This document shows, in pieces, positions 5,115 through 50,554 of a stretch of 52,348 nucleotides of DNA; within the stretch, counting starts at the first letter, position 1, and each line of letters opens with the position of its first letter. The notes below the pieces were generated by a model, which searched no databases, had not been told where the DNA came from, and saw only the letters and a list, made by a program, of their open reading frames with translations. This stretch comes from an uncultured Chlamydiae bacterium. Lineage in GTDB: Bacteria; Chlamydiota; Chlamydiia; Chlamydiales; Parachlamydiaceae. A program made the translations under genes and the position numbers. The stretch covers positions 1-52,348 of the forward strand of contig CAWHMU010000004.1 in NCBI GenBank assembly GCA_963830365.1, given 5' to 3'.

Positions 5115-5292
5115 CGCAGCGCGTTTGGAGTGCGCAACTCCTGTTGCGCTTTTCGTTTCCTAAAGGCCTTTTAGGCAGTCGGAACGGCCGTTTCAGGAAA
5201 GGAAGTTCATGCGTTTTTATGTTTCCGCGTGGTTTAGAAGTCTTTATGACATGAAAAGCGCAACAGGAGTTGCGCACTCCAAACGCGCTGCG
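5115..5292. repeat. REP-like inverted doublet (family A), ~51-bp arms, ~76-bp spacer
   Basis: CGCAGCGCGTTTGGAGTGCGCAACTCCTGTTGCGCTTTTC...GAAAAGCGCAACAGGAGTTGCGCACTCCAAACGCGCTGCG. Confidence 0.9.
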
Positions 5293-6188: not shown

Positions 6189-6363
6189 CGCAGCGCGTTT
6201 GGAGTGCGCAACTCCTGTTGCGCTTTTCGTTTCATAAAGGCCTCGTAACCAAAAGAAAGACCGTATGCTAACTGGACTTGCGTTAACTAAAGCATTTTCA
6301 GGCTTAAAGGATCTTTATGAAACGAAAAGCGCAACAGGAGTTGCGCACTCCAAACGCGTTGCG
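6189..6363. repeat. REP-like inverted doublet (family A), second copy
   Basis: Arms nearly identical to 5115-5292; ~73-bp spacer strongly diverged. Confidence 0.9.
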
Positions 6364-6783: not shown

Positions 6784-6904
6784 AAAGGTGTCAGGCTTGG
6801 CATTTGGAGATTTTTACGCTTAAACATCTTGCCATCAATATTCTAAGTGTCAAATCTCCAAATGCCAAGCCTGACACCTTTATGACACCTTTATGACATC
6901 TTTA
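6784..6904. repeat. perfect 30-bp inverted repeat plus 3x 11-bp tandem (TGACACCTTTA)
   Basis: AAAGGTGTCAGGCTTGGCATTTGGAGATTT (6784-6813) / AAATCTCCAAATGCCAAGCCTGACACCTTT (6852-6881). Confidence 0.9.
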
Positions 6905-10663: not shown

Positions 10664-10756
10664 GAAAGAGCACTCCATTTGATATGGCAATCAGTTTGCC
10701 CGATAGGATAATATTAACGCAAGTTGCTAATAGAGACTACAGCAAATTCGAGCCAA

Positions 10757-10920
10757 AAAAATCACCACAGAGGCACAGAGACACAGAGAAATATCGGAGA
10801 TCATTAATGATCCGAAGCGCAGCTGAGGGGCACTACCTAACCAATTTTTTCAAGTTGATGCATTTAGCTGCTCTCTGTTTCTCTGTGTTTCTGTGTTTCT
10901 GTGCCTCTGTGGTAAATTTT
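10757..10920. repeat. inverted doublet family B (CACCACAGAGGCACAGAGACACAGAG)
   Basis: Left arm 10757-10791, complementary right arm ending CTGTGCCTCTGTGGTAAATTTT. Confidence 0.9.
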
Positions 10921-10945
10921 TACTTTTATGTCTGGCAAGTTGCAT

Positions 10946-14039: not shown

Positions 14040-14471
14040 AATTTTGTAGCTAATCACTTCATTGCGATTTTCTTGCGCCTTACGACGGCAAGAAAGCGCA
14101 CTGATGCGAACAGGGCGATAAAAAATCTAAACAGCCGGGATGTGGAAACTTTAGTTAGCCGTGAATACGGCGGAAGCGTGTCGCTGCGGGTATGAACCAT
14201 TGAAAAGTTCATCAGATATATGTCGCCGTGGCTATGGCGACAGTGCGCTTGAAACTTTGCCGCCGTTGTTGCTTGATGTCATCGACGTTGATAACCACAG
14301 GCTTACGCCTTTTGGTTATCTGTTTCCGCCGAATTCACGGCTAACTTAAACCGCCTGAACTTGGATGTGTCGATGGACGAAATTAAAAAAAAAACAGCCC
14401 AATGTATACCGTTCGGATTTCATGCTGCCGCAAGGCGAGAAAACCTTGGGAAAAAATTTAGTTGCGAAATT
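14040..14471. repeat. nested inverted repeat with inner family C doublet (14151-14346)
   Basis: Inner AGTTAGCCGTGAATACGGCGGAA/TTCCGCCGAATTCACGGCTAACT; outer imperfect AATTTTGTAGCTAA/TTAGTTGCGAAATT and TTTTCTTGCGCCTT/AAGGCGAGAAAA. Confidence 0.75.
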
Positions 14472-36470: not shown

Positions 36471-36490
36471 ACTGAGTGGTTATGTAAAAA

Positions 36491-36805
36491 ATCACCACCG
36501 AGGCACAGAGACAAAGAGAAGCAAGCAGCAAAAGCGTGCGATCAGTAAATCAATAAATAGTTGTTATTCACTTAAATATATTCAAATTATCTCTGTGTGG
36601 TCGTGCCTCTGCGTCTCTGCGTTGAAATGTTCTTCTGCCATGCATCAATGCAAAACAACTTGGCTCATTGCACCTAGCAGAGGCCTGTGAATGCGCTTTA
36701 ACGCAGAGACGCAACGAGTCAGAGAGTTATAAGAAATTATTGCATGCGGTTCAAGTTAGGTGATGGATTTGGCTGGTGGTAGTTTCTCTGTGCCTCTGTG
36801 GTGAA
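36491..36805. repeat. family B doublet with internal related arms (AACGCAGAGACGCA)
   Basis: TCACCACCGAGGCACAGAGA ... CTCTGCGTCTCTGCGTT ... AACGCAGAGACGCA ... TCTCTGTGCCTCTGTGGTGA. Confidence 0.85.
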
Positions 36806-36890
36806 CTTTTACTTGCCCGTTGCTGTGCAAAACTTCAGTCATCGCGGCAACCTTGTGTAAAAACCACGTTTGTGATATGCTTTTTGCACG

Positions 36891-40789: not shown

Positions 40790-41004
40790 GGCAATTCACC
40801 ACAGGGGCACAGAGATAAAGAGAAGCAAGCAGCAAACAAAACAGGATGGCAGGATAGACAGGATAAACACAACCAAAGGAATGAAAACTTCGTCCGGGAT
40901 CATGCATGGAGTTTGATACTCTTTGGCAGTGTTTATCCTGTCTATCCGGCTGCTCATGTTTTTGCTTGCTTCTCTGTGTCTCTGTGTCTCTGTGGTGAAT
41001 TGCC
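40790..41004. repeat. long nested inverted repeat (family B outer arms, CAGGATAGACAGGATA inner arms)
   Basis: GGCAATTCACCACAG...GATAGACAGGATAAACAC / GTGTTTATCCTGTCTATC...CTGTGGTGAATTGCC. Confidence 0.92.
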
Positions 41005-44303: not shown

Positions 44304-44507
44304 GCAAACACCTTATAAGCGTTTTAAAGGTATGGTTCATTTTTTTTTGATGATACATAAAATTCAGATGATAATCGAGAAAAAGAAGAAGAAAAATAAC
44401 ATCATTTTAGGATGGTTGGGCTAAAAAACCGCCATAAAAAAAAGAGTAGTGGTTTTATGCCCATGAACCCGCTGATCCAGCATGCTGGTATTTTTTTCAT
44501 GAGTGTC

Positions 44508-44593
44508 ATACTACGCGCGGCTAGGCTGTGGGTATTTCAACCGCGGGAGCTTTCGCGTAGCCGAAATGTGCAAAACCTAACCGCGCGTAGTAT
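44508..44593. repeat. 18-bp inverted repeat hairpin
   Basis: ATACTACGCGCGGCTAGG / CCTAACCGCGCGTAGTAT. Confidence 0.75.
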
Positions 44594-44740
44594 AACTGCT
44601 TTTGATCCTGCCCATTTTCGTATGCGACCATCCTAATATGGCCTGAATTTTGTGGGAATTTGCCGTTTTTGAAGGCCTAATAAATCTATTCAATTACAAA
44701 ACCTCTACTCAAAAGTATATGAAGAAACAATGTATTTGCT

Positions 44741-45284
44741 GGCTCATCACACAAATGAGTACCTCGCCTTATGTAAATTAATCGAGGTCGTTGCAAATAA
44801 TGCATCATAAAAATCCGCAAATTGCATGTTCGCTCCTGTGAAGGTAGGATTTAAGCCAGTACTGCCATATAAGCGACAGGGCGCAAGCCATGAGAACATT
44901 TTTAAAGCCTCGCTAGAGGCGGAAGCATGTAGCCACATGCGTCAGCGTGTGGTTATCGCGTGTTTAGAAACAAAGCCGTTAATACGGCGACAGCAATGAC
45001 TAAAGGATATTATATGGTGTAATAATCGCATTTAATTCAACTTCCCTCGAAGTTGCTGTCGCCGTATTCACGGCTCACTTTTTGCTACATTTCATTCTAT
45101 AGGTTGACACCTATGGCTACATGCTTCCGCCTCTATCGAGGCTAACTAGACCTTCTGTGCTAGAATGTCGATTTGTTTCAAAGAGAACTTTACAAATATA
45201 TTGTTAATTCTCGTTTTTCAACCAGCCATTATTGAGTCTTTTTAACGAATCCTCTCGGACAGGTACGCGATTGTGCGATGAACC
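44741..45284 (+). mobile_element. ~545-bp triple-nested inverted-repeat element, copy A
   Basis: 24-bp TIRs (left one degenerate), 30-bp middle IR, 23-bp inner IR; near-identical to copy B. Confidence 0.8.
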
Positions 45285-45289
45285 TTTTT

Positions 45290-45834
45290 GGTTCATCGCA
45301 CAATCGCGTACCTCGCCTTATGTAAATTAATCGAGGTCGTTGCAAATAATGCATCATAAAAATCCACAAATTGCATGTTCGCTCCTGTGAAGGTAGGAGT
45401 TGAGCCAGTACTGCCATATAAGCGACAGGGCGCAAGCCATGAGAACATTTTTAAAGCCTCGATAGAGGCGGAAGCATGTAGCCACATGCGTCAGCGTGTG
45501 GTCATCACATGTTTAGAAACAAAGCCGTGAATACGGCGACAGCAATGACTAAAGGATATTATATGGTGTAATAATCGCATTTAATTCAACCTCCCTCGAA
45601 GTTGCTGTCGCCGTATTCACGGCTCACTTTTTGCTACATTTCATTCCATAGGTTGACACCTATGGCTACATGCTTCCGCCTCTATCGAGGCTAACTAGAT
45701 CTTCTGTGCTAGAATGTCGATTTGTTTCAAAGAGAACCCCACAAATATATTGTTAATTCTCGTTTTCCAACCAGCCATTAATTAAGTCTTTTTAACGAAT
45801 CCTCTCAGACAGGTACGCGATTGTGCGATGAACC
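45290..45834 (+). mobile_element. ~545-bp triple-nested inverted-repeat element, copy B
   Basis: Perfect TIR GGTTCATCGCACAATCGCGTACCT/AGGTACGCGATTGTGCGATGAACC; middle IR 45455-45484/45663-45692; inner IR 45523-45545/45602-45624. Confidence 0.85.
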
Positions 45835-46673
45835 GTTTTTTTTATAATTTTTTTGTGCGTATGAACCGTTTTATTGCATGTTGTCCTTTTTTAAGCTGCT
45901 GTTGGCCGCAATCCTCTCTTCAGGAAATACCAGCACAGGCTGACGTTTCTGAGACTCTGCAAACTATACCTAGACCGGCAAAAACCAAAAGTGATGATTC
46001 AGCTGATGAGTGTTTAAGAGATACTGGTTCACCTCAGCAGTCCCCGCCATCTTTAACGCGTAGTTGCTTGCCCAATACCATCTCTGACGAATCATGCTTG
46101 AGCATTCAGACTCAAGAAAGCAAATCATCGATGCAGGTTGACAGGTCTTTAGCATTAAAGCCATCAGCTTGCCAGGCTCTTATGTCAAGCGATCGCCCTG
46201 TTAACAGCAACAGTAACCCCGCAAACCTGTCTCCCAAACTCAATACATCAAGTATAAAAGTCCATCCAAGCCATAGGCCCCGACTTAAATATGTTTGGTC
46301 GACGTGTCCAACCGAAATCGATTCCCGTTCTTTTAGAAGCACCCATGAGCTTGGATCGGAAAGCCAGCTTCCCGATCAAAAAGGTGCAGCAGTTTGCGGT
46401 TGGCTGAATCGCGGAAATGGTATACTGGCTCTTCTACAAAATTATCGTAAAGTTCCACTGCCGATTGATGAGGGTGGTGAATTCGATAATTCCACAGCTA
46501 GCAAGACGCTGGATTTGAAACAAGCTGACAAGCAGCTGCCACGGAGCGACCCCGCAATCTCCTGCACCGATTTGGCCACCAGCTCCTTAACGTCACTTGA
46601 CAGCAAGATGATATTGCCTTCAGATGACAGGCAATCCAACCATTCTAATATAGATGCTGATAACGCGAATTAG
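45828..46673 (+). CDS. Ser-rich, likely disordered hypothetical protein
   Basis: 281-aa ORF; first ATG lies in the element TIR; no recognised domain. Confidence 0.55.
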   Translation: MNRFFYNFFVRMNRFIACCPFLSCCWPQSSLQEIPAQADVSETLQTIPRPAKTKSDDSADECLRDTGSPQQSPPSLTRSCLPNTISDESCLSIQTQESKSSMQVDRSLALKPSACQALMSSDRPVNSNSNPANLSPKLNTSSIKVHPSHRPRLKYVWSTCPTEIDSRSFRSTHELGSESQLPDQKGAAVCGWLNRGNGILALLQNYRKVPLPIDEGGEFDNSTASKTLDLKQADKQLPRSDPAISCTDLATSSLTSLDSKMILPSDDRQSNHSNIDADNAN

Positions 46674-46775
46674 GATGTCGATTTTATTTTTTGCGTTTTA
46701 AAGCTATTTTGTTTACAATCATTCCATTAATACTATGATATATTGTCAAATTGCGATTCGGAACATGAGAAAAGT

Positions 46776-47774
46776 ATGAAAAGAGACATTCAGGCGCGAA
46801 TTATTGCATTGGGAGTCAATCTGCCACAGCGTATTTTGACAAATCAAGATTTGGAGAAAATTGTCGATACCACCGATGAATGGATAACCTCGCGCACAGG
46901 CATCAAAGAGCGCAGGATTGCTGCGGCCGATGAATTCACGTCGACGATGGGGACAGCCGCGGCCAAAGAAGCCCTTGCTAAAGCCGGCCTGACAGTCAAC
47001 GATATCGATTTTATCCTGCTGGCCACATTGACCCCTGACTATATCGCCAACAATACCGCCGCCCTGGTGCAGGCACAACTGGGCGCGCCAAACATCCCTG
47101 CCGTAGATATCCAGGCGGCCTGTTCGGGTTTTATTTACGCCCTTTCCATGGCCAAGGCTTTTGTTGAATCGGGCATGTATCACCACGTGTTGGTGGTGGC
47201 ATCTGAGAAGATGAGCACTTATGTGGATTATGCCGATCGCGGTACAAGTATCTTATTCGGCGATGGGGCAGCTGCGGCCATCGTCTGTGCCGAAGGGGAG
47301 GGGTTGTCTATCGATGGCGTGTCGCTGGGTGCCGACGGGGAGTATGCCGAAATCGTCTATATTCCGGCCGGCGGAGTGCGCCGGCCGTCCACCAACGAAA
47401 CGATCGAGACCAAGCAGCATTGCTTCAAGATGCAGGGTAAAGAAGTCTTTAAGCAGGCCGTAAGGTGTATGAATGCGGCCGCCAAAGAATGCATGGCGAA
47501 ACTGAATTTAACCGATGCCGACATCAGTTGGATTGTGCCTCATCAGGCAAACTTACGCATCATTGATGCTGTGGCCAAAAATTTTAATATTGCTGCTGAG
47601 CGGGTGTATAAGACGGTCCATAAATATGGCAACACCTCGGCCTCCAGTATCCCGCTTGCGCTCGATGAAATGATGGCCGCCCATACCTTAGCGCAAGGGG
47701 AGCGCATTTTGCTGGTGGCTTTTGGGGCTGGCTTGACATGGGGCGCGGCTGTTTTGACAAAAGTAATGAAATAA
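46776..47774 (+). CDS. fabH: 3-oxoacyl-ACP synthase III
   Basis: WITSRTGIKERR, AACSGF, ILFGDGA, PHQAN, GNTSASSIP, AFGAGLTWG. Confidence 0.97.
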   Translation: MKRDIQARIIALGVNLPQRILTNQDLEKIVDTTDEWITSRTGIKERRIAAADEFTSTMGTAAAKEALAKAGLTVNDIDFILLATLTPDYIANNTAALVQAQLGAPNIPAVDIQAACSGFIYALSMAKAFVESGMYHHVLVVASEKMSTYVDYADRGTSILFGDGAAAAIVCAEGEGLSIDGVSLGADGEYAEIVYIPAGGVRRPSTNETIETKQHCFKMQGKEVFKQAVRCMNAAAKECMAKLNLTDADISWIVPHQANLRIIDAVAKNFNIAAERVYKTVHKYGNTSASSIPLALDEMMAAHTLAQGERILLVAFGAGLTWGAAVLTKVMK

Positions 47775-47790
47775 TATCGATGAGGTGATG

Positions 47791-48750
47791 ATGTCGCAAA
47801 AGTCTAAAATTGCCTTTATATTCCCTGGCCAGGGTGTCCAGTATCCGGGGATGGCCAAAGACTTCTTCGATCATTATGCCATTGCCAGGCAGACGTTTGA
47901 AGAAGCCGATGAGCATTTGCATCGCAAACTGTCTGTTATTGCCTTCGAAGGGCCGGATAAGATCCTTACCGAAACAAAAAATAGCCAACTGGCCATCTAT
48001 ATTGCCAGCGTGGCGGTTTGGCGCGTGATAAACCAGCTATTTCCTGAGCTTGTACCAAACACCTGTGCAGGCTTGAGTCTTGGCGAATATACTGCCCTGA
48101 CGGTATCTGGACGACTATCATTTGAAGATGGACTTAGCCTGGTGGGGCAACGCGGGCAGTTCATGAATGACGCTTGCGAAGCTAAGTCTGGTACGATGGC
48201 GGTCGTCTTGGGGCTTGACGCCGACATGGTAGAAAAGTTGGTAGCGGAAGTCAACCTTCCTGACGACCTATGGGCAGCAAATTTCAACTGTCCAGGACAG
48301 GTAGTACTTTCCGGCACGCTGCGCGGCATTGAAGCCGGCAGTGCCGCGGCCAAAGCCAAGGGGGCCAAGCGAGTGATTATGTTGCAAGTGCATGGCGCCT
48401 TTCATAGCGGTTTGATGCAGCAGGCGGAAGAGCGTTTGGCTCCCTATATTGAAGAAGTGCCGCTTAAAGAAAATGGCTGTGAAATTATCATGAATGTGAC
48501 TGGCGTTCCAGCGCAGGATATAGCTGAAATTCGGCACAACCTAATCAAACAGGTCACGCATGCAGTGCGATGGGAGCAAGGCGTGCGCCATATGATGCAT
48601 GAGGGCATAGATTTGTTTCTTGAGCTTGGCTGTGGCAGCACGTTGGCAGGTTTTAACAAGCGCATTGGTGTGATGTCCCCTACCATAAGTATTGAGACGA
48701 TAAACGATATCAGCGCCTTAGAAGATTTATTGAAGAAGGAGAAAGCATGA
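47791..48750 (+). CDS. fabD: malonyl-CoA:ACP transacylase
   Basis: FPGQG.Q, GLSLGEY, ANFNCPGQVV.SG, GAFHS. Confidence 0.97.
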   Translation: MSQKSKIAFIFPGQGVQYPGMAKDFFDHYAIARQTFEEADEHLHRKLSVIAFEGPDKILTETKNSQLAIYIASVAVWRVINQLFPELVPNTCAGLSLGEYTALTVSGRLSFEDGLSLVGQRGQFMNDACEAKSGTMAVVLGLDADMVEKLVAEVNLPDDLWAANFNCPGQVVLSGTLRGIEAGSAAAKAKGAKRVIMLQVHGAFHSGLMQQAEERLAPYIEEVPLKENGCEIIMNVTGVPAQDIAEIRHNLIKQVTHAVRWEQGVRHMMHEGIDLFLELGCGSTLAGFNKRIGVMSPTISIETINDISALEDLLKKEKA

Positions 48751-49499
48751 ACGAGTTGCTAAAAGGACAAACAGCCATTGTCACAGGTGGCACAGCCGGC
48801 ATCGGCACCGCCATTGCCAGACAATTTGCTACGCAAGGGGCTTATGTGGCCATTTTCGGCACCAACAGCGTGCGCGGGGAACAGGTGGTGGCCGAACTTA
48901 CCGCTCTGCCGCATAGTGCCGGCGCAGCCTTTTACCAGGTCAATGTGGCAAATCTGCAGGACGTTGAGCAAGCTATAAAAAAAATTCAGGAAGAACGTGG
49001 CAATGTCGATATCCTTGTGAACAATGCCGGGATCACGCGTGATCAGCTGCTGATGAAAATGACCGAGGAAGATTGGGATAATGTCATGGCTGTGAATGTC
49101 AAGTCCTGCTATAATACTTGTCGAGTCTTGGTGCGCGCTTTTCTTAGAGCCAAAAAAGGTAAAATAATCAATATGAGTTCTGTCATTGGCTTGACAGGAA
49201 ATGCCGGACAGGTGAATTATGCAGCTTCAAAGGCTGCGATTATTGGCTTGACAAAAGCGTTGGCAAAAGAAGTGGCCGCACGCAATATCCAAGTCAATTG
49301 CATCGCACCTGGATTCATTATCACTCCCATGACCGATGGGATGACGGAAGAACAAAAAAAAGCCACCATGGAGCAAATTCCAATGGGGCGGATGGGAACG
49401 CCGGATGAAATTGCTAAAACGGCCCTGTTTTTGGCAAGTTCGTGGTCCGATTACATCACCGGCCAAGTGATTACTGTTGATGGCGGTATGGTGATGTAA
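48747..49499 (+). CDS. fabG: 3-oxoacyl-ACP reductase
   Basis: [33 protein letters not shown]. Confidence 0.97.
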
Positions 49500-49551
49500 G
49501 CAAACCACCGGAAAAAAAATTAATTTAATATTAACGCAAAAGGGAAAATGT

Positions 49552-49791
49552 ATGGCAGTTGAACAAGAAGTAATCGACATCGTTGTCGAGCAACTGGGTG
49601 TAGATAAAGAAGATGTAAGCTTAACGAAGTCCTTCGTTGAAGATCTTAACGCGGACTCTCTTGATCTAACCGAACTAATCATGACTCTCGAAGAGCGTTT
49701 CGGTTGTGAAATTTCAGAAGAAGAAGCCGAAAAATTGCGTACTGTAGGCGATGTCGTCTCCTACATCGAAAAGGTGAAAAGCGCTTCTTAA
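49552..49791 (+). CDS. acpP: acyl carrier protein
   Basis: [14 protein letters not shown]. Confidence 0.98.
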
Positions 49792-49837
49792 TTGACCATG
49801 CCGGCCTCTGGCTGGCGGTCTAAATATGTCCTTTATG

Positions 49838-49875
49838 AAAACGCCTGCTTTGGTCACAAAGCAGGCGTTTTTTTT
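49838..49875 (+). terminator. bidirectional intrinsic terminator after acpP
   Basis: AAAACGCCTGCTTTG-GTCA-CAAAGCAGGCGTTTTTTTT. Confidence 0.88.
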
Positions 49876-50026
49876 CATAAGCCTATATTCGGTTTATCCG
49901 ATAAAGCCGGACCTTTGGCAGGTGAAAATAGCAAGTCTTCAGATTTTGGTGAGCCTTAATTATCGGGACGTAGTGAACTGTAAGAAGTATATCCTGACTG
50001 CCCGGCTTTATCCTGTTCTTTTATTT

Positions 50027-50554
50027 GGTTCATCGCACAAATCGAGTACCTATCCGATGATGATTCGTCAAAAAGCCCTAGTAATTGATGGTTGAAATAC
50101 GAGAAGTGATGATCTATTTGTAATGTTCTCTTTGAAACAAATCGACATTCTAGCACAGAAGGTCTAGTTAGCCTCGATAGAGGCGGAAGCATGTAGCCAT
50201 AGGTGTCAACCTATGGAATAAAATGTAGTATAAAGAGAGCCGTGAATACGGCGACAGCAATTTCGATGGAAGCTGAATTAGATGCAATTATTATAGTATA
50301 TACTATCCTTTAGTCATTGCTGCCGCCGTATTCACGGCTTTGTTTCTAAACATGCGATGACCACACGCTGACGCATGTGGCTACATGTTTCCGCCTCTAT
50401 CGTGGCTGTAAAAATGTTCTCATGGCTTGTGCCCTATCTCTTGTATGACAGTGCCAACTCAAATCCTTCCTTCACAGGATCGAACGCGCAATTTGCCATT
50501 ATGTATGATTTATTTAACATCCTCCATTAGTTTACATATGGGGAGGTACGCGAT
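50027..50554 (-). mobile_element. ~545-bp nested element, copy C (inverted; right TIR cut by ISAs1)
   Basis: Reverse-complement match to copies A/B with conserved arms and diverged loops; ends AGGTACGCGAT|CAGGGC. Confidence 0.82.

Follow-up and report, generated by a model that had tools for sequence, protein, structure and literature searches.

The analysis concerned a non-coding unit of about 545 bp, built of inverted repeats within inverted repeats, that recurs in a 52,348-nt stretch of DNA (the window) from an uncultured Chlamydiae bacterium of the Parachlamydiaceae, and asked which mobile system the unit belongs to and what copies it. Very probably it is a gene-less element with ISL3-type ends and, as cargo, a doublet of Y1 transposase-type arms, likely copied by an ISL3 transposase. 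This reading is built on the ends of the unit, target duplications, intact ISL3 partners, free doublets, loci of relatives with the order arm-gene-arm, and the joint divergence of shell and cargo. From these we infer that the unit is mobile and that its cargo may have a use. ISL3 MITEs and REP-like doublets are each of a known kind and their combination is a variant, in which one selfish element likely spreads by being carried within another of a different kind.

Copies in the window

A preliminary description of the window reported three related units, A and B in tandem with a T5 spacer and C inverted, and all three were recovered, at 44741-45284, 45290-45834 and 50027-50554. The features are:

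44741..45284, + strand: copy A of the composite MITE, 544 bp
44741..44764, + strand: first TIR of A, ISL3-type, sharing 22/24 nt with the TIR of the autonomous 1327-bp ISL3 element
44906..45143, + strand: cargo of A, a doublet of three-hairpin arms, 238 bp
45261..45284, - strand: second TIR of A
45285..45289, no strand: spacer of 5 nt (T5) where the TIRs of A and B abut, facing outward
45290..45834, + strand: copy B, 545 bp
45290..45313, + strand: first TIR of B, a perfect 24-bp pair with 45811-45834
45314..45454, + strand: left shell interior of B, first ~45 nt ISL3-like, remainder filler
45455..45545, + strand: left arm of B, with hairpin 1 (45455-45469), linker, GTAG (45478-45481), 20-nt hairpin 2 (45482-45501), spacer, hairpin 3 (45523-45537) and tail
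45546..45601, no strand: central spacer of B, the position of the Y1 transposase gene in relatives (L036)
45602..45692, - strand: right arm of B, inverted counterpart of the left, GTAG hairpin at 45646-45669
45693..45810, + strand: right shell interior of B, homologue of the corresponding part of the G013 composite, likeness to the ISL3 left end weak
45811..45834, - strand: second TIR of B
50027..50554, - strand: copy C, inverted, third subfamily, one TIR without its outer 13 nt
50170..50407, - strand: doublet cargo of C
14157..14342, no strand: doublet of the same family in free, decayed form, without ISL3 TIRs

The nested inverted pairs of 24, 30 and 23 bp given in that description are all perfect in B, but the TIR arms of A agree at only 19/24 positions, and one TIR of C is reduced to 11/24 nt. 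The window copies are without a clean target duplication (2 mismatches in A, 3 in B, and C is truncated), and neither A nor B contains an ORF of at least 80 aa. The suggested folding check gave -124 kcal/mol for B, far beyond chance (z -13.6, 0/100 shuffles as low).

Copy B is 99.6% identical to C27:36582 and C3:27605 on other contigs, the nearest siblings of A are C31:38055 (97.6%, partial) and C34:21899 (97.4%), and C is closest to C21:47341 (97.7%). A tandem duplication or assembly artefact was considered as the origin of A/B and rejected, as the two are 95.8% alike and have closer siblings elsewhere; because they belong to different subfamilies, this is no collapsed duplicate. Of nine contigs from one DNA run, which contained 0.06 of the words, none spans A/B. 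A second 5-nt end-to-end junction is present in this genome at C6:5656/5662, giving two abutted-end junctions in total.

The three-hairpin arm and its Y1 genes

The middle and inner repeats, described earlier as separate layers, form a single arm of about 90 nt with three hairpins, which leaves two layers in the unit, and an inverted pair of these arms makes the 238-bp doublet. The additional hairpin, 20 nt long and GTAG-footed, sits between the middle and inner hairpins and was missing from the original inventory. An inner hairpin lies 54-57 nt downstream of 133/170 outer-arm motifs, and a GTAG hairpin lies upstream of 108/117 inner hairpins. Both halves of 14157-14342, part of a region (14151-14346) previously taken for a lone inner arm, proved by alignment to be complete but decayed arms, together forming a free doublet. 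Free doublets also exist in extragenic DNA and, counting partial pieces, 67/126 doublet loci have no adjoining sequence of the 545-bp unit's shell. In an unrooted cargo tree the free doublets fall on long branches among the shell-borne ones, a pattern that does not give the order of events. Arm arrays were found at C18:1-1366 and on G013 C94; the 67-bp array on C18 was considered as a CRISPR and rejected, its units being near-identical arms with no unique spacers.

The proposal that doublets were inserted into each other's loops, so that the unit would be three separate inverted-repeat elements, is very improbable. The geometry is nested, and this genome does contain a genuine case of loop-targeted nesting, in which a different element inserts in the 4-nt loop of hairpin 1. 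However, the middle and inner hairpins keep a fixed spacing in free doublets, in relatives, and in gene-flanking arms, and no unit was found with the middle pair around a cleanly empty interior; the single cargo-less shell (n=1) retains hairpin remnants and looks like a deletion. The proposal is also contradicted by locus L036 of a relative, in which two inverted arms of the doublet family, each with all three hairpins, have a Y1 gene placed precisely between them.

The same arms adjoin Y1 genes at L042, L053 (a broken gene), L109 and L112. The Y1 protein of L036 has 154 aa. The cognate proteins are about 150 aa long, end in a short C-terminal tail, and carry DH[IV]H, WQ and YxxNQxxHH; the sequence recorded for the cognate protein at the last motif is YIQNQHEHH, and its match is to the IS200 model, not the RAYT model. 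By motifs rather than by the original authors' profiles, they appear TnpA-Y1 subclass 1.2-like, agreeing in motifs and size with the published marks (DH[IV]H, WQ, YxxxQxxHH, ~148 aa, short C-terminal domain; PMC6006769). That subclass is described, in the main text of its source (Quentin et al. 2018, PMC6006769), as mostly from Cyanobacteria and Bacteroidetes and as lacking both REP and typical terminal structures. In contrast, inverted arms bracketed 13/20 such genes here, against 4/197 control loci, in a sample drawn for the relatives mostly from nine genomes picked for having the doublet, and with a test that missed L112, where an arm is clear upstream of the gene. The arms would be natural substrates for a Y1 subclass published as REP-less.

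The suggested search for a Y1 tnpA gene flanked by the same arms succeeded in relatives (L036 and others) but not in this assembly, where none of the 9 Y1 matches lies beside these arms and tblastn detected no such gene; the assembly is 82% complete and may lack it. The genome has four other subclass 1.2-like loci, and the arm sequences of its resident Y1 genes differ from those of the unit.

Like the REP/REPIN/BIME elements associated with RAYT (TnpA-REP, class 2), as described in PMC6006769, PMC3733652 and PMC8266576, the arms have a hairpin foot GTAG, which fits the REP tetranucleotide GT[AG]G, occur in extragenic DNA as inverted doublets and as tandem arrays, and flank a Y1 HUH gene. They differ in that an arm comprises three hairpins over about 90 nt, in that the foot, GTAG in this genome and most relatives, is ATAG or TTAG at L036, L042 and L053, and in that most intact doublet copies ride in a DDE-type MITE. 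The partner gene is also unlike RAYT, being IS200-like with YxxNQxxHH and not YxxxNP.

Across 10 arms the three hairpins are 95% paired, and 6/18 pairs have changed on both sides. These compensatory changes and the strong fold, together with inner hairpins that are terminator-like on both strands (4 sites vs 1.6 expected), would suit a structured non-coding RNA, or a regulatory element, that the host retains. This explanation is nevertheless improbable: Rfam at gathering thresholds matched only rRNAs, no promoter-like site was found inside A or B, the copies are dispersed and have target duplications, and single-stranded DNA hairpins predict the covariation equally well.

The ISL3 shell and the probable movement of the unit

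Rather than the three copies first noted, dozens are present genome-wide, with 31 matches spanning at least 70% of the unit and 21 near-complete copies. TIR ends number 339, against 0 in a shuffled genome, and an 8-bp duplication flanks 82/190 candidate end pairs (69 exact), compared with 0.9% (0.3% exact) when ends are paired at random. The target duplications proposed as a check were found, with at most one mismatch, at 12 full copies of 537-547 bp of the 545-bp family. In 27 copies the distances of shell and cargo are correlated (Mantel r 0.82 on the left side and 0.37 on the right), and the 8-bp duplications and this joint divergence support the earlier view that the composite moves, as far as its sequence can indicate, as one non-autonomous unit. 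At high identity the full unit occurs in no relative searched, a set that included no other genome of the genus, and a homologous composite is present in another genus. The host itself is chlamydial, the named relatives of its FabD being Parachlamydiaceae.

The earlier link to REP/REPIN and Y1 enzymes holds for the core, whose arms flank Y1 genes in relatives, but not for the outer ends, which are those of a DDE element of the ISL3 family. Judged by its shared TIRs, 8-bp duplications, absence of genes, and multiple dispersed copies, the outer layer is an ISL3-type MITE. Five elements of 1327-1328 bp have the same TIR type and 8-bp duplications and encode an ISL3 transposase (401 aa; domains DDE_Tnp_ISL3, HTH and Zn-ribbon in the 1327-bp element), and of 22 ISL3 domain matches 12 span the full length and have no stops. 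Counting against the main reading, the TIR of B agrees with that of the nearest autonomous ISL3 at only 19/24 nt, the copies in the window have no clean duplication, and the non-coding DNA of this genome abounds in inverted repeats in any case. The left end of the unit resembles the right end of ISL3, at the 3' end of the transposase gene (0/500 shuffles as good), while the rest of the left interior of B is filler, missing from the 446-bp and G013 variants. The right shell interior matched the ISL3 left end no better than 73/500 shuffles (9/300 in the other test), and one swapped control in the shell-likeness test outscored all 300 of its own shuffles; in a sibling 531-bp family the likeness is clear at both ends (0/500 each).

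The unit shares with the ISL3-family MITEs described from Microcystis aeruginosa (187 nt; PMC11448079) and in association with ISMac21 (PMC3852290) a non-coding sequence, GG-starting TIRs in common with resident ISL3 elements, 8-nt direct repeats, and a stem-loop fold. Unlike in these, the interior consists of a module that can be recognised as belonging to another system, the Y1 arms, and that is also found free. Nearly every ISL3 MITE family in this genome has a different such module, whereas the cited parts of those accounts describe no cargo of this kind.

Over 21 copies, substitutions amount to 0.15 per site in stems, 0.29 in loops, and 0.6-1.05 in spacers and shell, the rate in cargo stems being 4-7 times lower than in the latter two. 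Such conservation inside the shell, and the four other subclass 1.2-like loci, could suggest that a Y1 or RAYT enzyme moves the whole 545-bp unit via its hairpins, but there is only a very slim chance of this. The copy boundaries are TIRs with 8-bp duplications, and IS200/IS605 enzymes make no target duplications; MITEs derived from IS200/IS605 have terminal hairpins, no TIRs and no duplication. The arms of the resident Y1 genes differ, as noted, and an ISL3 TIR was found in 0/39 Y1 loci, a result that also led to rejection of a whole Y1 gene as passenger between ISL3 ends. Since the Y1 gene is absent from the assembly and 42/47 full-length doublets lie inside ISL3 shells (40 in that of the 545-bp unit and 2 in another), the ISL3 transposase is the likely current mover.

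The composite could have arisen when (i) an arm-gene-arm locus lost its gene, leaving a doublet, and (ii) the doublet was inserted into a mini-shell or ISL3 copy, whose transposase gene was lost. (iii) The ISL3 transposase would now work on the TIRs by copy-out-paste-in, with the abutted 5-nt A/B junction as a by-product of one end attacking beside another. For IS1411, the abutted-end spacing is reportedly exactly 5 bp. The abutment of ends across a few bases, at A/B and C6, is like that of ISL3 copy-out-paste-in intermediates (PMC7986276, PMC3812183), although here it is represented by two junctions only. (iv) Least certain, with slightly less than an even chance, shells with a fold-back doublet may have been favoured, folding or length aiding the pairing of ends or lowering the harm of insertion.

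Fold-back cargo in other ISL3 elements

Among 70 duplication-bounded small ISL3 elements, an internal inverted repeat of at least 29 bits is present in 66 and of at least 40 bits in 59. The cargo is made up of arms belonging to different Y1 or GxxExxY genes, in about ten shell-cargo combinations. In the neighbouring 239- and 498-bp families the cargo matches the flanks of subclass 2.1-like genes of this genome, so that these siblings, and not the 545-bp unit, resemble the TIRtrons/TIRYT elements of subclass 2.1 (Di Nocera et al. 2013, PMC3733652).

Step (iv) has a rival that leaves the anatomy unchanged and comes close to being an even bet, namely that the cargo is a pure passenger, doublets being so common that any shell longer than the minimum contains one, with the stems kept by hairpin-templated repair or gene conversion and not by selection. 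Inverted repeats of at least 40 bits are common in background non-coding windows (13/150 at 150 nt, 33/150 at 250 nt, 63/150 at 450 nt), most arms of several cargo families lie outside ISL3 zones (76/84, 150/212, 35/38), empty shells of 69-136 bp make up 5/14 elements in relatives, and MITEs of other end types in this genome also bear palindromes. Set against this are the 59/70 and 66/70 frequencies across about ten combinations, the finding of only one short empty shell in this genome, and the loops, which are also more conserved than the spacers (0.29 vs 0.6-1.05 per site).

The broader proposal, that ISL3 MITEs are general vehicles for REP-like doublets, with fold-back cargo aiding the transposition or persistence of the shell and Y1 or GxxExxY doublets multiplying without their own enzyme, is tentative and less likely than not. 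If true, it would mean that unrelated mobile systems are partners in both directions, and REP/REPIN would have a second means of spread, driven by a DDE enzyme. Literature searches, whose scope excluded most subscription journals, found REP doublets nowhere described as cargo of ISL3 MITEs, and returned no relevant description of GxxExxY genes with repeats. The multiplication of REP-like repeats in vivo is described as still poorly understood (PMC8266576), and hitch-hiking on a DDE MITE would be a concrete route. The unit also offers an easy assay for whether an internal fold-back helps ISL3 transposition.

Units A, B and C and their ISL3-type shell

Three gene-less units of about 545 bp were described in the window (contig C4), each with an outer, ISL3-type shell around a 238-bp cargo:
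44741-45284, copy A
45290-45834, copy B
50027-50554, copy C, inverted

The units, the T5 spacer between A and B and the nested inverted pairs were all found as the preliminary description had reported them, but its count of three copies was too low, as the family has 31 matches genome-wide at at least 70% unit coverage and at least 78% identity. The 24-bp outer terminal inverted repeats (TIRs) are present, although the arms of A match at 19 of 24 positions and one TIR of C has lost 13 nt. Folding z-scores were -13.6 for B and -14.8 for its core. The closest siblings elsewhere in the assembly match A at 97.4-97.6%, B at 99.6% and C at 97.7%, compared with 95.8% between A and B. Because all three have closer siblings elsewhere than A has to B, a collapsed repeat or a local duplication was rejected as the source of the tandem.

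Ends of this TIR type number 339 in the assembly and 0 in a shuffled genome, and the TIR pattern was found in 16 of 72 other genomes of the family. Among 190 candidate inward-facing end pairs, 82 are bounded by an 8-bp duplication with no more than one mismatch (exact in 69), compared with 0.9% and 0.3%, respectively, on random flank pairing; these duplications are 80% A+T. The window copies are poor examples, with 2 mismatches in A and 3 in B. The transposase encoded by each of five paired elements of 1327-1328 bp has the full set of three ISL3 Pfam domains (401 aa in four, start-shortened in one). ISL3 domain matches in the assembly total 22, of which 12 are full length without stops, and represent two intact types and a third, broken one.

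The first 45 nt inward of the left TIR resemble the right end of an ISL3 element (0 of 500 shuffles), and the left interior of A reads LHKARYSFV against LHKVRYSFAR in ISL3, part of this overlapping the TIR. The unit works like an ISL3 MITE and has the defining features tested, except that the subterminal likeness to ISL3 ends, seen on the left, was not significant for the right shell interior in the shuffle tests, where one swapped control exceeded all its shuffles. Four outward-facing end pairs lie within 40 nt of each other, with spacers of 5 (A/B), 5 (C6:5656/5662), 9 and 35 nt. The end-to-end spacing of IS1411 is 5 bp. In ISL3 circles the ends abut with few bases between them, according to a review (PMC7986276), and ISL3 MITEs as such have been published (PMC11448079, PMC3852290).

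Three-hairpin arms and Y1 transposase genes

The core is made of two arms, one per half, each consisting of a hairpin, linker, GTAG, 20-nt hairpin, spacer and hairpin. The inner hairpin lies 54-57 nt beyond 133 of 170 outer motifs (leaving out the C18 array), with the GTAG hairpin upstream of it in 108 of 117; the arm spacing is fixed. When ten arms, from this assembly and from relatives, were aligned, pairing held in 95% of cells, compared with 28-53% in slid controls, and 6 of 18 pairs were altered on both sides; the structure was taken from B, which favours it. In 21 near-complete 545-family copies, parsimony counts, which ignore recombination, gave 0.15 changes per site in stems, 0.29 in loops and 0.6-1.05 in spacers and shell interiors; restricted to G/C sites, the contrast was 7 changes in 51 versus 136 in 131. 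Self-repair or gene conversion could produce such slow stem change and so mimic selection. Tandem arrays of 67-70-bp arm units occupy two contig starts, C18:1-1366 and, in the relative G013, C94:1-900 (L107), where a short piece of the start of the cognate Y1 gene comes next.

Of 60 other genomes searched, 9 had matches to the core of the unit, and almost every hit was limited to that core. At L036, in another genus of the same family, two inverted arms enclose a 154-aa Y1 (HUH) transposase gene that lies exactly where the unit has its central spacer, and arms and Y1 genes are also linked at L042, L053 (gene broken), L109 and L112. The arm-linked proteins carry the motifs that Quentin et al. 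(PMC6006769) give for subclass 1.2, a subclass listed without REPs in the available part of that study. Inverted arms accompany 13 of 20 subclass 1.2-type genes versus 4 of 197 control ORFs, most of the 20 coming from nine genomes chosen for carrying the doublet. None of the 9 Y1 matches in the assembly, which is 82% complete, has 545-cargo arms. The cargo works like a REPIN but is not filed as a REPIN proper, since it fails the class 2 RAYT test. At C45:169640-170425 (L004), repeated three-hairpin arms bracket a 291-aa ORF with two tandem Y1 domains, possibly a fused Y1 dimer.

Association of shell and cargo

Among 47 full-length doublets, 40 adjoin a 545 shell and 7 do not, 2 of the latter lying in a different ISL3 shell; with fragments included, 67 of 126 doublet loci are without adjoining 545-shell sequence. 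Mean likeness is 79% for free doublets (n=5) and 93% for shell-borne ones; in 27 copies, distances between shells are correlated with those between cargoes (r 0.82 and 0.37). The composite thus appears to move as one. In G013, from another genus, a 385-bp element shares its TIR type and cargo family with the 545 unit, has homologous shell junctions and is bounded by a near-exact 8-bp duplication; the composite is therefore old or has passed from one genus to another. No order of events emerges from the cargo tree.

Anatomy, duplications, ISL3 partners, an arm-gene-arm source and shell-cargo co-divergence are matters of observation. The course of events that we infer, and consider probable as a whole, is that an arm-gene-arm locus would have lost its Y1 gene to leave a doublet, which would have been captured in an ISL3 shell and spread as a composite by the ISL3 transposase. 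Searches of literature available in part turned up no description of ISL3 elements that systematically carry REP-like doublets.

A second element (C1:1-1463; about 30 ends genome-wide, derivatives of 168-590 bp) encodes a 387-aa DDE transposase, IS1182/IS5-like at scores below all cut-offs. It targets 4-nt loops of REP-like hairpins, with an apparent 4-bp duplication read from the flanks. At C34:3952-5086 a derivative of about 590 bp, itself carrying another Y1-type doublet, lies inside hairpin 1 of a 545-family copy. This locus has four layers; real loop nesting does occur outside the window units.

Other shells, other cargoes and the window neighbourhood

About ten shell-cargo combinations occur in the assembly. 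An internal inverted repeat of at least 29 bits is present in 66 of the 70 ISL3 elements that are under 900 bp and bounded by duplications, and one of at least 40 bits in 59. These copies are not independent, and the background is high, as 9%, 22% and 42% of non-coding windows of 150, 250 and 450 nt (150 per length) reach 40 bits. Cargoes of the 531-, 488- and 341-bp elements correspond to arms belonging to other subclass 1.2-like genes, the 239/498 cargo matches flanks of subclass 2.1-like genes, and the 209/210/551 cargo, like a second 498 module, corresponds to repeats that surround two GxxExxY (PF13366) genes; the 410-bp cargo had 0 matches among the loci tested. With several cargo types the majority of arms are found away from ISL3 zones, so that a shell is one home among others.

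Fourteen small TIR-bounded elements of relatives, a subset defined by TIR position with some G013 members picked for overlap with cargo matches, include five empty ones (69-136 bp), and 8 of the 9 of at least 220 bp hold a doublet. A cargo that helps its ISL3 shell has somewhat less than an even chance of being correct, and one that merely rides in it is just as plausible. In the relative G023, a single shell occurs in three lengths (L076, L100, L101), empty at 136 bp and, at 239 and 333 bp, carrying central palindromes in the same position, so that nature provides a series on which the role of the cargo could be tested.

Families of 301, 310 and 383 bp (e.g. C25:12382, C15:17224) are new MITEs that consist of a 209-bp MITE plus an ISL3 left end and are spreading with their own duplications; they demonstrate end-to-end capture. 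Four ISL3 MITEs with intact 8-bp duplications (C46:71190-73543, C29:8711-11111, C42:67789-70007, C31:38055-40320) contain a group II intron RT, an IS110 transposase or an IS1634 transposase, the IS110 guest having been scanned in C29, to which C42 is nearly identical. GxxExxY nuclease genes, a family present in 55 of 73 genomes of the host family, are bracketed by inverted repeats at 21 of 28 scored loci (including C45:196155-196493 and C42:127062-127412, L114 and L115, and L136-L164) versus 4 of 197 control ORFs, and both genes of this assembly lie within long doublet arrays.

The assembly comprises 2.73 Mb in 48 contigs, and its FabD is 64-66% identical to its named relatives, which are Parachlamydiaceae. 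A and B are flanked by a glycogen/starch synthase-like gene and an ORF of unknown identity; C sits between a fabH-fabD-fabG-acp cluster (before) and an ISAs1 transposase (after). A 92-bp inverted-repeat element (44505-44596) adjoins A, and its TA-bounded relatives, possibly of IS630 type, disrupt 545-family copies at C48 and C16. Free inverted doublets of families other than the 545 cargo also occur in the window:
5115-5292, doublet
6189-6363, doublet
6784-6881, doublet resembling subclass 2.1-type arms
10756-10921, doublet resembling GxxExxY-type arms
36484-36812, doublet resembling GxxExxY-type arms
40790-41004, doublet resembling GxxExxY-type arms

A 16S-23S-5S rRNA operon occupies the contig start (1-5031), and 22877-26803 (minus strand) carries 264-bp tandem repeats within a 1308-aa protein that matches the choice-of-anchor Z repeat model.
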